Source: a virus
Taxonomy: Duplodnaviria; Caudoviricetes
Strand: one strand, 5' to 3'
IMG/VR virus record: IMGVR_UViG_3300042997_000909
Location: 1 to 64,000 of that record
Length of the DNA: 64,000 nt
Below are positions 3,001 to 55,593 of the stretch, in pieces. The notes under the pieces were generated by a model, which did no database searches, was not told the DNA's origin, and saw only the letters and a list, made by a program, of their open reading frames with translations. Positions within the stretch are counted from its first letter, which is position 1. Each line of letters starts with the position of its first letter. Position numbers and translations under genes: made by a program.

Positions 3001-6000
3001 AATTATGATACACTTGTAGAGTTGATAGCTGAAGAAGTACTTGCTGATGGGTTCCAGACTTATATGCAAAAAGCAAGAACGTCTGCACCAAAAACAGCAA
3101 TGCAAAGATTCTTTGAAACACTTAAAAGAATTATTAACTTCTTTATCAAAAACAGAAATCAGATTGACTATGTATATGATCGCGTTAAACGTGGTCACTA
3201 CAAAACAGCATCCATAAAATCTAATGTTTTTGATGGACAAGTTGCATTTGAATTAATACCAGGATTGAATCAGTACTATCTAAATGAAGAAGGTAATGTT
3301 GCTAGAGCTAAATCAGTATTGTCAGTTGGTGAACAAGACCAACTTATCAATATGATTGTTGGTGTAATGTTCCAAGATAAAGTTCAATCAGATACATTTG
3401 AAACTAGATTCCAACGTGCTGCAGACAAAATACTTACTGAAGTATTCAGTATGGAAAAACTTGTTGCTCAAAATCCTGAGAAACGCGAACTAATAGAAAA
3501 GAAGTATAGCAAGTTAATTTCTACATACAGGTTTATGCTTGGTGCTAGAATGAAAGGGTTAAATGTAAATGACATTAACCTTACTGGTAATACTAAGTAT
3601 GACAGTAAAACAGATGTAAACAAGGAAGCTCTTATAAATGGTGAGTCTATAGATAATACTATGGGTCAATATTCATTTGAGGTTTTGCGTAGACTTGCTA
3701 AAGACAAATATGATAAAGCAAACTCAATAAAAATTCAACGTGACAATGATGAGTTTACATTAGACTCAGAAGAAATAGAAAATACATTTACTGGTGAAAA
3801 TGCAAATGAAGCACAAGATGATGATGCACAATCTTTAAAAGAAGAAACAGAAAATAATGACTTTGATGCAGGAATGGGTGAACAAAATCGCATGGACTCA
3901 TATGTATCACAAATCAGAAGATTCTTTTCTACACTGAGAAGTGATGAATTTGATGAGGAAACTGGTATCAATTTTCCACGTATGATTGATGGTCAAGTTC
4001 TTTTTCCAACATTATTGAAAATTACTGCAGGTATTGATCCAAGAAACATCATTGACACTATTGGTGTAATGGCTAAGCAAATGACAAAAGATGGTTATAC
4101 TGCTGTTGGAAAAGACTTAGAAACAATCTATGATGAAATTCAGACAAGAACAAAATCAAATACTGAAGGTGTTGCACAATCTAATAAACAATTGCGTGAG
4201 CTACTAACTGAAGTACTGCATGGTGTTGAACTTAACTATGTAATGTTCAATGTCGCATCACCTAAGAAAGTTTCAATGGATGAAATGTCATCTGGTGAAG
4301 CATTGACAAAAAATGAGTCAGTCAACTTTAGAATGTTTGATAAAGTAATGGATGCTGATAATACAAAAAAACGTAATGACATCATTGCAAGTTTTATCAA
4401 AAAGCATTCTACTGAAGCATCTACTTCAGAATTTATTGAAGCAGTAAAATACTTAAAAGAATTTGCTACAAGTTTTATGAGTACTCCTGATATACTTTCT
4501 AGTGTAACAGGACAAACAATGAAGTTAGAACAACTTACCAATCAGTTGCATGATGCATTGACCACTATTGGAATGACAATACCAAGATCTTTGGTAGAAC
4601 TTTCTATAATGGCAATGAATGTTGAAGAGAATGGTGTGGCACTAGATATAGATCCACAACTTAAAAAGTTTTATGATGTAAATGAAGGGTTTGTAAAACA
4701 ACAACAATACCTTGAAAAAGACTTTTTTAAAAGTTTAAAAGTGGTGCTTGATTCAGCGTATTTAGAAAATGGTAAGCCAAACTCAGGAATAAGAAACATA
4801 CTTGATGATGAGAAATCAAAAAATAAGGATGCAAAACGTATGCTTGTAATTTTGAAAAAAGCAGCAGCATATGTTGTCAAGTATGATCCAACAGATATAC
4901 CTAGTGTGATCAAAAACGCTGAAGGTAAATCAATATATCGCTTTGCAAAATACAATCCACTTATTCTTCTTGGACAACGTCTAAACACAATGACACTTGA
5001 AGAAGCATTGGCAGATGATCCTTATTTTAAAAACACACTTCAAGCATTCTTAGAAAACAACGTATTGTTTGGTGGTTTACTTTCTGGTGAGACAAATGAA
5101 GATACAGTAAAAATAGAATTGTTTTTGAAAAACTTTACTGTGGCAATGTTTGGTGGAGTTCAACAACGTATTGGTGATGTTGCTAAAAAAGGACAGACGT
5201 TTAAATCTATAGATAAAAGGTCACTGCACATGTTGCAAGTTCTTGCATTCATGGATAGAAAAACTGTTAGTGATAAATTTGGTAGAGAAATAACAACCTA
5301 CTTCAGATCATTTCATCAGTTGGAAGCAACGTCTACAAACTTCTTGATTTCATCTTTATATGAACCTTTTACATCTAGAGATAAAAAAGTTACCAATGAC
5401 AGAGGTCAATTACTTTATCAAGGTAAACACTTAAAGATTGTTGAAGACCTTGTTGGTATTGTAAGTCAAGAATATAACAGGATGTCACGCGAATGGAATC
5501 GCAGACTTGACTTAAAACGTGATTATGAAAGTGGTAAAAGCAATGAGCTTGTAAATAAGTACAATGCAGTACTTGAAGACGATGGCGTTACAATAAACGT
5601 TGATGATGAAAGTTTGCGTGCATACAAGTTTAATATTCTAAGTGACTTCTTTGAAGCAGATGAAAATGCATCATTAAATCAAGACCTTATTGAACTTGCA
5701 AAAAATCAAGTACCATTTGACAAGATTGATTCAAAAGAACTTCTTACTGCATTAGATGAATATGCAAAGAAAGAATTTGGAGCATACCTTGAAGAACTTG
5801 AAAATCTTGGTTTAATTTCTAAAACACCAATATTACCTTCTGATCAAAAAGTTGAGGTAAGACCAGCTGTAGCAGCACGTTTACCAAAAGAATACTATAC
5901 TTCTGATATGCTTCCAAAATCTATAAAAGAAGGTTTTGCAAAAGCAAACATATCAGATAAGTATTCTCAACCATATGGTACAAAAGAAGATGGTTCTCTT

Positions 6001-51791: not shown

Positions 51792-52253
51792 TTATTGAAG
51801 CTGTACAGTTACTGAAATAATAGTTCCCTCTTCATCATAATGAGCATACACAGGATACATTCCATCTCCAAATGCAGTACTAAATGCTAAACCAGCACCC
51901 GTGTGACCCATTTTGAATCTTAGTTCACCATGTCCTTCTTCTGACAAAGTTGCTTGTGCACATGCATTGTAGCTAAATCCACTTTTTGATTTAGGTCTAT
52001 CTGTCACTTCCCAGTCATGCTCTGATATTAGAACATTCATGGTTTTACCATATTCTGGTAACACCTCTTCATAGTTTGCAAAATCCTTTCCATAAGTTAA
52101 GGTTCTACCAGTGTGTTTGTTTTTGTAGACTCTAATGTCTTCAAAATCTTCATTTTCCCATTGAGAATCAATGTAGCATGGATCACAGATCATTAACTGA
52201 CCTGAATCCACAGCAACATGTCCTATGAGAACTTCTGTTACAGTTTCTGCCAT
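51792..52253 (-). CDS. DUF4241-like protein
   Basis: IGHVAVDSGQLMICDPCY...FGDGMYPVYA; family recalled. Confidence 0.55.
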   Translation of the reverse strand: MAETVTEVLIGHVAVDSGQLMICDPCYIDSQWENEDFEDIRVYKNKHTGRTLTYGKDFANYEEVLPEYGKTMNVLISEHDWEVTDRPKSKSGFSYNACAQATLSEEGHGELRFKMGHTGAGLAFSTAFGDGMYPVYAHYDEEGTIISVTVQLQ

Positions 52254-52279
52254 AGCATTTGTTTTTAGTTAATAAAAAA

Positions 52280-52630
52280 GTTAGTGTCTAGTCTTTCCCA
52301 GTGTCAACAGATCTATTCCCTGCAGGCAACCTGTAGCACGGTTTTTAGTTACTCATCGTTTTAGCACCCTCAGATGTAGGGTCAAGCTGAGAACTCATTC
52401 GCATTGTGTTTGGTCTAAATGACCACCAGCTTTCTCAAGGCTGCAATACGTCCAGCATTACTGCTGATATTTTGTTTATACTCCTCAATGTTTTGGAGTC
52501 CAATCTGTTCTTGGTAGTCAACAGATATGCTTTTAACCACTTGATTGCTTGTACTTCATGTCACATAGTTCTATACAAGTATAAAAGATGTGACCTGATT
52601 GACGTGAATACTCTGGTTTGGCGTCTGATT
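52280..52630 (-). ncRNA. Candidate ~350-nt structured RNA of unknown family
   Basis: Largest gap without a convincing gene. Serial hairpins, a GNRA loop, G-U pairs favouring the minus strand, potential pseudoknots. Confidence 0.55.
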
Positions 52631-53043
52631 ATCTTTAATTAGTTAAATCCTTTTCCACAATGCATCATAGCATTGATCTTCTCTCTTTCTAGCCAAGCTA
52701 GATATCTAAATAGTCTCTTCATTTTCCAAAAGTTTTTTAATGGCTTGATTTGCTAAGTACTTGCTACATTTAAACTTCCACACAAGATACTGTTGAATTA
52801 TCTTTTTTGGCATAACCATGTACTCATTGTTGTTAGCTTTAACATCATCAACCATTGCGTTAATTTTAATACTCATATTATTCTGATTTAGTTGATGACT
52901 TTTTACCTGCTGGTTTAGATTTCTCTAAACATTGATTGCAAATCCATACACCAATTTCTTGCATTTCAGATTTGATTTTGTCTAAATGACAAGAGTAACA
53001 TGTCTTTTTTACTTCATTCATCTTAAGAATTTTTGGTATTAGA

Positions 53044-53294: not shown

Positions 53295-53438
53295 TCAGTT
53301 TTTGTTCTTCCACTCTTTCCAAGTGTCAAAGTCTTGTAACTTTTCTAACATCCATTTAGCACCTGCAATCCAATTGTCTGTCTTGTCTACATTTGGGTCA
53401 GCTAAATTAGCAGCAGCTTCTTTGATTTCTTCTTCCAT
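53295..53438 (-). CDS. 47-aa peptide with an EAA...GAKW motif (not in ORF track)
   Basis: MEEEIKEAAANLADPNVDKTDNWIAGAKWMLEK...; shares the motif with its neighbour. Confidence 0.55.
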   Translation of the reverse strand: MEEEIKEAAANLADPNVDKTDNWIAGAKWMLEKLQDFDTWKEWKNKN

Positions 53439-54696: not shown

Positions 54697-55593
54697 TTAA
54701 AATATGTACCTCGTCTTGTTCCATGGTATAATTTCGTTTTTAAGTTCTTCAAATTCCAATATTCTTTCAGCTTTGTAACCTGATTTGTAGCGCAATGCTG
54801 CTCCACCATACTGAGAAACTTTATCCTCTTGTATATCTGGACGCCACAAAAGCTCCTCACCAGGCAGGTTATGCTGCAGATTATGCTGATGCTTGTCTCT
54901 ACTATGTGTAAGAAAAATTACCTCTGACTTGACGAGATGTTTGTATTTTCTATCTACAAGTCCATCTACACCTTCAAATAAGATTCTATACTCTTCTAAC
55001 CACCCATCTGTAACCACTACAGGGGAAAAGTTTATGTGCACATCGTAACCAGCTTCTATAAAATCATTGATAGCTCTAATTCTGTCAATAATCTTACTTG
55101 TATTTGGCTCCAAAACATCTGCATACTTCTGCGGCATCAAACTAAACCTGATTCTAACCTTGCTTTTAGGGTTAAACTCTAAAAGTTTAGTGTTTACAAA
55201 TTTAGTAGCAAAAGAACCCATAGCAATGTCATGATCTCTAAAAAACTTAAAAATTCTTTCCCAGTCATGATATTTTGCATGAAGCGCAAAGTCCTCATTA
55301 CAGGATATGTCATACGTAATAAACTTCTCATGTGTTTGATTTGGCTTTTCAGTTGTGTCAAACCATGCGTGTGAGTTTATTTCAGTAAGAATATCTGCAA
55401 CACTCTTTGCATCAGCAACTGTTAATCCTTCTGGCTTATGACGTTTCATATAGCAGTAACTGCAATTGTACAAGCAGCCATGACCAAAACTTGGTGAAAT
55501 AAAATCTGTAGATCTACCACTAGGTCTAATGACCATGCTCTTTCTTTCTACGCTCTCTACGAGTTGGTGTTGGGAGCTTTGCTTTTGTTTCAT
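54697..55593 (-). CDS. Spore photoproduct lyase-like radical SAM protein
   Basis: DFISPSFGHGCLYNCSYCYM (CxxxCxxC), FATK, RIRFSLMP, RIRAIN...GY.V..NFSP, LRYK. Confidence 0.82.
   Translation of the reverse strand: MKQKQSSQHQLVESVERKSMVIRPSGRSTDFISPSFGHGCLYNCSYCYMKRHKPEGLTVADAKSVADILTEINSHAWFDTTEKPNQTHEKFITYDISCNEDFALHAKYHDWERIFKFFRDHDIAMGSFATKFVNTKLLEFNPKSKVRIRFSLMPQKYADVLEPNTSKIIDRIRAINDFIEAGYDVHINFSPVVVTDGWLEEYRILFEGVDGLVDRKYKHLVKSEVIFLTHSRDKHQHNLQHNLPGEELLWRPDIQEDKVSQYGGAALRYKSGYKAERILEFEELKNEIIPWNKTRYIF

Follow-up and report, generated by a model that had tools for sequence, protein, structure and literature searches.

A predicted structured RNA family of freshwater phages and the 18-letter hairpin string it shares with unrelated viruses

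GOLLD and ROOL (RF02032 and RF03087) are large, ornate RNAs of phages and prophages, often located near tRNAs, whose function is unknown. A much smaller viral element, s2m (RF00164), is a hairpin of ~43 nt found in the 3' untranslated regions (UTRs) of astro-, corona-, calici- and picornaviruses. Its function is likewise unresolved, and to our knowledge it occurs only in eukaryotic RNA viruses. Here, we describe a conserved, gene-free segment of a Caudoviricetes genome (IMG/VR record IMGVR_UViG_3300042997_000909) that recalls GOLLD and ROOL in its general character and s2m in its last hairpin, P9. The window analysed is the first 64 kb of this 123,450-bp record; coordinates are those of the window unless given as genome positions, and the RNA is read from the minus strand. 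Comparison with relatives indicates that positions 52288-52636 almost certainly correspond to a real structured RNA of a new family, and that P9 is very probably a portable signal acting at the RNA level.

Like GOLLD and ROOL, the RNA is phage-encoded, lake-derived, elaborately folded and strongly conserved. It differs from them in having no sequence or structure match to either, in its size (~250-350 nt versus 600-800), and in being placed as a leader directly before a gene and carrying the portable P9. P9 resembles s2m in being a short and near-invariant hairpin that is present across unrelated viruses, apparently through horizontal spread, once per genome and in an untranslated region. Unlike s2m, to which it is unrelated in sequence, it measures 18-20 nt, lies 5' of open reading frames (ORFs) or tRNAs, and is found in DNA phages as well as RNA viruses.

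Relatives were gathered from IMG/VR and Joint Genome Institute (JGI) metagenomes using the DUF4241 protein encoded next to the segment and two DNA patterns. The non-coding region is kept in more than 25 distinct contigs. With respect to eight relatives, the RNA blocks are 81-92% identical and the adjacent DUF4241 coding DNA 78-88%, and length differences among relatives are limited to hairpin tips. Covariation was tested on an alignment of 20 distinct full-length members, with a model of 54 pairs in 12 helices (pseudoknot included) and slid-partner controls. In this model 98.4% of cells were paired (26-45% in the controls), 20 pairs had changed on both sides in a compensatory manner (0-5 in the controls), and the covariation score of 0.245 (0.02-0.05 in the controls) was reached by none of 500 shuffles. 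RNAalifold was in agreement with the covarying fold. Moreover, G-C/G-U and U-A/U-G alternations are frequent and would appear as mismatches on the opposite strand, so that the RNA sense is the minus strand of the window. Judged by these comparisons, the region is an untranslated RNA read from that strand, with the following features, in 5' to 3' order of the RNA after the first line.

52288-52636, minus strand: full extent of the conserved non-coding RNA, comprising 5' blocks, core and 3' tail, from blastn/nhmmer conservation and alignments of relatives.
52625-52636, minus strand: conserved block AAAGAUAAUCAG with a GATAAT hexamer resembling a -10 box, kept in most family members and flagged by a promoter scan; a possible promoter element or RNA 5' end.
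52596-52612, minus strand: conserved block AGUAUUCACGUCAAUCA, from alignments of relatives.
52560-52594, minus strand: P0 hairpin GUCACAU...AUGUGAC, which varies between sub-lineages (by eye).
52540-52554, minus strand: conserved block GUACAAGCAAUCAAG, from alignments of relatives.
52516-52522, minus strand: P1 5' strand GUUGACU, paired with 52348-52353 in 94% of cells, with one compensatory pair and alternation between G-U and G-C.
52500-52514, minus strand: P2 hairpin CCAA-GAACAGA-UUGG (loop GAAYAGA), compensatory changes in 3 of 4 pairs.
52481-52498, minus strand: P3 hairpin CUCC-AAAACAUUGA-GGAG, whose 10-nt loop does not vary; 16 letters are invariant, and a C-G pair becomes U-A in 4 sequences.
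52452-52467, minus strand: P4 hairpin with a GUAA (GNRA) tetraloop, compensatory changes in 4 of 6 pairs; its G-C/G-U alternation fixes the strand.
52444-52450, minus strand: P5 5' strand CGUAUUG, partner of 52400-52406; 3 compensatory pairs, 100% paired.
52427-52443, minus strand: P5a hairpin, three of its four stem pairs with compensatory changes; the loop UGAGAA (52432-52437) supplies the 5' strand for the pseudoknot.
52411-52425, minus strand: hairpin of variable length within the P5 junction, differing by up to ~30 nt among relatives.
52400-52406, minus strand: P5 3' strand CAAUGCG, from the covariation model.
52388-52393, minus strand: pseudoknot 3' strand UUCUCA, with six pairs that are 100% paired; one of them is C-G instead of A-U in 6 of 20 sequences.
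52364-52387, minus strand: P6 (GC and ACCCU with AGGGU and GC), whose tip takes inserts of 30-90 nt in relatives.
52348-52353, minus strand: P1 3' strand AGUAAC, from the covariation model.
52324-52341, minus strand: P7 (CC/GG), where a C-G pair is U-A in 4 sequences, and GUUG(A/C)CU for the second time, a repeat seen in the alignment.
52308-52322, minus strand: P8 hairpin CAGG-GAAUAGA-UCUG, compensatory changes in 2 of 4 pairs (in 10 and 6 sequences).
52288-52305, minus strand: 18-letter string made of GACA and the P9 hairpin CUGG-GAAAGA-CUAG (P9 at 52288-52301), invariant in the family.

The RNA thus described is modular, with 5' conserved blocks and P0, a pseudoknotted core of ~170 nt (~52348-52522) and a 3' tail. 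The core is closed by the long-range helix P1 and holds P2-P6; its pseudoknot joins the P5a loop to the strand between P5 and P6, and many of its loop and junction letters are invariant. The P8 loop GAAUAGA repeats the motif of the P2 loop. In relatives, block AAAGAUAAUCAG falls within a divergent intergenic region.

A sequence-only reading of this stretch had proposed a gene-free, hairpin-rich segment on the minus strand as a candidate novel phage RNA. The segment exists as described, and its interpretation as a novel structured RNA is borne out by the covariation, by conservation at the level of a gene, by the strand evidence of the G-U pairs and by the absence of any Rfam match. It is also more GC-rich, as had been noticed (G+C of 0.41-0.43, versus 0.29-0.36 nearby and 0.354 for the genome), and the reported lack of tRNA or transfer-messenger RNA (tmRNA) ends agrees with negative ARAGORN and cmscan searches at the locus. 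Most of the individual helices recur in the comparative model: ACTCC/GGAGT as P3, CAGC/GCTG as P5a and ACCCT/AGGGT as P6, each with comparative support, CAGCA-GTAA-TGCTG as P4 and CGTATTG/CAATGCG as P5, each with the compensatory pairs listed above, together with the TGAGAA:TTCTCA pseudoknot and the terminal CTGGGAAAGACTAG hairpin. The stem GTCACAT/ATGTGAC persists with altered letters in close relatives of the L002/L009 type and is replaced elsewhere by other hairpins (by eye), and TGGTC/GACCA falls in the hairpin region of variable length. Three pairings were not recovered. ATCTGTT/AACAGAT is 69% paired, no better than shuffles, and gives way to P1 (GUUGACU/AGUAAC) and P2 (CCAA/UUGG); neither CATC/GATG nor CTACAGG/CCTGCAG is conserved in the alignments of relatives (by eye). 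That reading had missed that the RNA is modular, that a long-range helix closes the core and that the last hairpin is portable.

Two follow-ups suggested at that time, an Infernal cmscan against Rfam and a covariation test in homologues, gave no matching family and the 20 compensatory pairs, respectively. Specifically, a search of the whole window with the 4227 covariance models of Rfam 15 gave no match reaching gathering score, and with the cutoff relaxed to E <= 10 cmscan of 52100-52850 returned only two microRNA noise matches (E 2.7 and 7.3). Models of the hammerhead, twister, pistol, hatchet and HDV-like ribozymes (HDV, hepatitis delta virus) had no match at the locus. BLAST against 50,697 cultured-phage records found no match for the region or for two other contexts of the hairpin. 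Across 8.4 million papers, searches with the hairpin sequence strings gave only unrelated primer matches or none, and no paper describing the hairpin was found. As far as these searches show, the RNA is the first of an uncatalogued family to be described; the 8,495 unnamed candidate RNAs of a 2023 IMG/VR catalogue (PMC10690425) may include it.

The distribution of the 3'-terminal string is of a different order from that of the family. The exact 18-mer GACACTGGGAAAGACTAG was found in 84 viral contigs with 46 distinct upstream contexts, where ~0.4-2 would be expected by chance; a scan letting two positions vary puts the chance level at ~0.3-0.5 matches per specific 18-mer, and other single-letter variants of the 18-mer also give ~0.3-0.5 matches each. 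Prokaryote genomes totalling 596 Gb contain only 10 matches, several of them phage-like in appearance, one of which is a tandem pair with the covaried stem UCGG/CUGA. Each of five genomes (62-268 kb) holds a single copy at up to three mismatches. The 18-mer invariably has the sense orientation of its neighbours and nearly always falls between genes, preceded mostly by U and followed mostly by A or G. In dozens of otherwise unrelated phages and in two RNA viruses it marks the 3' end of a structured, untranslated stretch, usually 2-70 nt ahead of an ORF start or 4-9 nt ahead of a tRNA. An ORF of at least 50 amino acids starts within 70 nt downstream in 21 of the 46 contexts (median ~30 nt), and a tRNA starts 3-9 nt downstream in three to six of them; in others a hairpin or terminator follows. 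A variant, GACACTGGGAAAGACCAG, in which a G-U pair becomes G-C, is present in about five non-coding contexts (L198, L202, L203, L206, L210 and others). The letters of GACACTGGGAAAGACCAG also occur within a conserved protein-coding gene family (~10 contigs).

The exact string extends to RNA viruses, as it is carried in sense by a dicistronic picorna-like virus (helicase, 3C protease, RdRP_1 and CRPV-type capsid) and by an unrelated toti-like virus:

L036:1028-1045 (also in L040), sense strand: 18-mer of the picorna-like virus, at the end of a ~1-kb 5' UTR, 20 nt before ORF1.
L031:8096-8113, minus strand, sense to ORF1: 18-mer of the toti-like virus (RdRP_4), 51 nt before ORF1, at the end of a long 5' UTR.

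We know of picorna-like and toti-like groups only from eukaryotes. The presence of the string in RNA virus genomes indicates that the element works as RNA, and its joint presence in phages and RNA viruses implies that any partner should be common to bacteria and eukaryotes. Furthermore, by BLASTP a 62-kb carrier phage that is 94% complete (G005) shares no detectable protein with two other carriers (G000 and G004), pointing to a host partner rather than a phage partner. No phage protein near the 18-mer is common across contexts. Upstream, the contexts have in common only tRNA T-loops and lineage-specific words, and P8 is not part of the universal P9 module. At 18 other loci with the 18-mer, no Rfam match overlapped it (E <= 0.01), and no trans targets of the hairpin were found in the phage genome.

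A number of further observations concern this hairpin. Two copies lie close together in L112 (~216-254), L029 (~1505-1631), L100 (~4680-4735), L051 and L061, the second being sometimes covaried or extended (GACA-UCGG-GAAAGA-CUGA, GCUGG/CUAGC, CCUUG/CAAGG); in L029 an abiF RNA motif (RF03085) lies ~50 nt upstream of the copies. In seven small phage contigs (L047, L048, L050, L051, L061, L077 and L079), P9 is followed by a conserved AUGUGGG...CCCACAU hairpin, the next gene begins in the fixed string UUUAUAAUCAUG, and tRNA-like pieces occur just upstream. Within the window, a copy with three mismatches (53310-53327, minus strand) and an 11-mer (55255-55265, minus strand) both lie inside ORFs and are probably due to chance. 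Both halves of the hairpin also occur within 38 nt of each other in domain V of Escherichia coli 23S rRNA (GGAAAGAC at 2056-2063 and UGACACUG at 2086-2093), which we treat as a coincidence; the GGAAAGAC site is the A2058 region, and the UGACACUG site what we take to be a variable region.

The virus record is complete, with 127-bp direct terminal repeats and a G+C content of 35.4%, and family carriers belong to a lineage of ~120-kb freshwater phages with direct terminal repeats. ARAGORN found no tRNA gene in the window or in the whole 123-kb genome. Shine-Dalgarno-like sites precede only 3 of the 141 ORFs of the genome and the DNA upstream of genes is enriched in TAnnTTTG boxes (19 versus 7 in a reversed control), which together suggest a host of the Bacteroidota type. 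All genes around the locus are on the minus strand, and the RNA occupies a gap of 452 nt (52254-52705) flanked by a 56-amino-acid ORF and by the following gene:

51792-52253, minus strand: gene of a 153-amino-acid DUF4241 protein (Pfam PF14025, E 3.4e-10), downstream of the RNA, with its ATG 34 nt past P9.

Stop-codon recoding was discarded as an explanation of the gap because all six frames contain all three stop types. An intron in DUF4241 was likewise rejected, since DUF4241 genes of greater divergence lie directly against a coding gene, with no intervening RNA, and the identity of the upstream gene changes; group I and II intron models had no match, and the flanking ORFs are unrelated, complete and variable between relatives.

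The RNA of most relatives comes immediately after two divergently transcribed genes, encoding a 340-amino-acid metallophosphoesterase-like protein and a protein of 93-100 amino acids, and the next gene begins 15-44 nt further on. From this position, the RNA appears to head a transcription unit. The downstream gene varies, encoding DUF4241, a small FEFxGHEVLT protein or a lipoprotein-like protein, and more distant DUF4241 genes have no such RNA upstream. Distant members (L129/L177, L158 and L159) retain P3-P6 and the pseudoknot letters without P8 or P9. In contigs G001 (L169:1643-2701) and L174, a 352-amino-acid gene of ~1 kb on the opposite strand splits the core from P8-P9; it is the metallophosphoesterase-like gene that sits just upstream of the RNA in most other relatives. 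Both RNA halves are conserved in these two contigs, yet the 3' strand of P1 is deleted; contig L178 also lacks it. The distant members and the split together indicate that the RNA is modular.

We consider that these data are on balance best explained by a new structured RNA family serving as a leader and ending in P9 as a docking site. The RNA would form the untranslated leader of a transcription unit that starts from a promoter near 52640, and its core would be an autonomous folded domain whose binding partner could be a ligand, a protein or the core itself. P9 would be a docking or marking site, on the RNA, for a universally conserved cellular component, and docking would delimit or switch on the beginning of the unit that follows. 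The leading candidate for the partner would be the translation apparatus, given the many copies 15-60 nt before start codons, RNA viruses included; RNA-processing machinery would come second, as the copies abutting tRNAs would suit a role in tRNA or RNA processing. As a mechanism, a leader combined with host-factor docking is a tentative proposal.

Several points weigh against this explanation. Single-sequence folding energy is unexceptional (z = -1.38, with 7 of 100 shuffles as good), a result that the sequence-only reading would have counted against a structured RNA, so that the case for structure rests on covariation across relatives. P9 is invariant in the family, and the evidence for its stem pairing comes from rare variants elsewhere, namely the G-U to G-C change (~5 contexts) and the second copies with UCGG/CUGA and CUUG/CAAG. 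The P1-closed architecture may be dispensable, as the core is conserved in G001 and L174 after loss of the P1 3' strand. The hairpin is no more complementary to E. coli 16S, 23S and 5S rRNA than shuffled sequences are. Finally, ribosome docking does not readily explain the copies just before tRNAs or terminators, and a general start signal would not be expected to occur only once in a genome.

We think a bolder version rather unlikely: the 18-letter hairpin would be a minimal, horizontally spreading module that engages translation (or tRNA-handling) machinery conserved from bacteria to eukaryotes, and the ~170-nt core a new ligand-sensing, protein-sensing or self-assembling RNA that gates it. 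The same 18 letters would then mark or boost a downstream ORF or tRNA in phages, picorna-like and toti-like viruses alike.

Among the alternatives, the one that survives best is a stable, trans-acting ornate RNA of the GOLLD/ROOL kind, in which the core would be cut from the leader to serve as a scaffold, multimer or protein sponge, with P8-P9 as a module that forms or stabilises its 3' end. The many invariant letters in loops and junctions of the core and its pseudoknot would suit such a role, as would the persistence of the core without P8/P9 in distant members, and away from the downstream gene in G001 and L174; in other viruses a terminator sometimes directly follows the 18-mer. This phage moreover encodes a second large RNA. 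A GOLLD RNA (RF02032) lies at genome positions 64596-64994 on the minus strand (116.9 bits, E 2e-31, below the gathering score of 150) and is directly followed on the same strand by a pistol ribozyme (RF02679; genome 64529-64590, minus strand, 56.5 bits, above the gathering score of 34.5), ~12 kb from the locus and beyond the end of the window. The ribozyme would be expected to trim the GOLLD 3' end, and the pair offers a natural arrangement for studying how phages trim large RNAs. As the GOLLD model matches there, the search was able to find GOLLD, and it found none at 52100-52850. However, neither a terminator nor a known ribozyme was found between the RNA and the next gene in the family, and the tight spacing from P9 to the ATG (15-44 nt) looks cis-acting, which leaves this alternative on the unlikely side.

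A cis-acting regulator of the riboswitch type would make the core an aptamer, with AGUAAC switching between the 5' GUUGACU of P1 and the second GUUG(A/C)CU, 18 nt downstream, and so altering how the next gene is expressed. The core does resemble aptamers in its P1-closed multi-helix junction, its pseudoknot between a loop and a joining strand, its invariant unpaired letters and joining strands, its 5' leader position directly upstream of a gene and its possible competing helix. The latter, between AGUAAC and the second copy (GUUGMCU, 52324-52330), can form in 96% of cells; however, it shows no informative variation and no covariation. In this comparison the RNA is known as a fold only: a covarying multi-helix junction with a pseudoknot is present, which does not imply ligand binding. 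Nor is a classical expression platform apparent, and there is neither a terminator nor a helix that would sequester the start site. Moreover, the three unrelated gene types that follow it are functionally incoherent, no Rfam riboswitch matches, and the P1 3' strand is missing in L178, G001 and L174. We therefore regard a riboswitch as improbable.

Processive antitermination of the HK022 put or lambda nut type, in which nascent P8-P9 would modify host RNA polymerase to read through terminators, tRNA arrays and untranslated RNA, has similarities to the distribution of P9. Like put and the boxB of nut, P9 is a small cis hairpin in early leaders, with one or two copies per genome, and its purine-rich GAAAGA loop recalls the GAAAA/GAAGA loop of boxB. 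Its sense placement in leaders at the start of transcription units, and elsewhere upstream of terminators or untranslated tRNA arrays, is compatible with this model, as is the lack of a phage-encoded partner common to carriers. On the other hand, no boxA-like element is seen by eye, P8 lies outside the universal module, and P9 is invariant across phages without common proteins. Above all, picorna-like and toti-like RNA viruses of eukaryotic type carry the hairpin and are not transcribed by bacterial RNA polymerase, which makes this mechanism a poor candidate.

Theta ribozymes are described as minimal HDV-like ribozymes beside phage tRNAs that are proposed to define tRNA ends; in that account cleavage occurs at tRNA 3' ends and requires a nested double pseudoknot (PMC10879173). 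P9 is similarly a small phage RNA element abutting tRNA genes, and together with variable flanking helices it could be a self-cleaving ribozyme or an endonuclease cut site that separates upstream RNA from the mRNA or tRNA. In favour of this, an invariant run of ~20 nt lies between variable helices at the boundaries of RNA units, in a phage setting rich in small ribozymes, the pistol ~12 kb away included. Unlike theta ribozymes, however, P9 lies 5' of tRNAs and ORFs and is a simple 4-bp hairpin without a match to HDV-like or other ribozyme models. Its conserved letters form a single short contiguous run with no second conserved strand, the contexts have no common upstream motif, and an HDV-like fold can be drawn for a few of them only. 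Cleavage at this site thus seems very doubtful.

A signal in the DNA, whether for packaging, as an origin of replication or as a promoter recognised by a phage polymerase or sigma factor, might have accounted for the TTGAC(A)-like letters before P2, P8 and P9, the single intergenic copy and the AT-rich DNA that follows in some contexts. It is largely refuted and scarcely credible: the 18-mer is present in RNA virus genomes; a promoter class would occur in several copies per genome, and each of five genomes has one; terminators or tRNAs lie within a few nt downstream; no -10 box is seen by eye at a fixed distance; T7-type RNA polymerase (PF00940) was not found in five carriers, in a search without a working positive control; and covariation with G-U pairs is strand-specific. 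Lastly, a small protein gene, or a decaying pseudogene with chance hairpins, can be practically dismissed, since the 41-codon GTG-initiated frame at 52415-52540, whose conservation would have told against an RNA, is broken by stops in most of the 20 relatives and has no Pfam match, indels are not multiples of three and fall in hairpin tips, and substitutions are compensatory for pairing.

This RNA adds a well-supported, modular family to the few large and elaborately folded RNAs described from phages. The more striking part is an invariant 18-letter RNA signal found in phages without common proteins and in two lineages of RNA viruses. If it does dock onto a universal machine, it would be a tiny, portable handle on translation or RNA processing across domains of life, useful both for understanding how viruses take over their hosts and as an engineering part.

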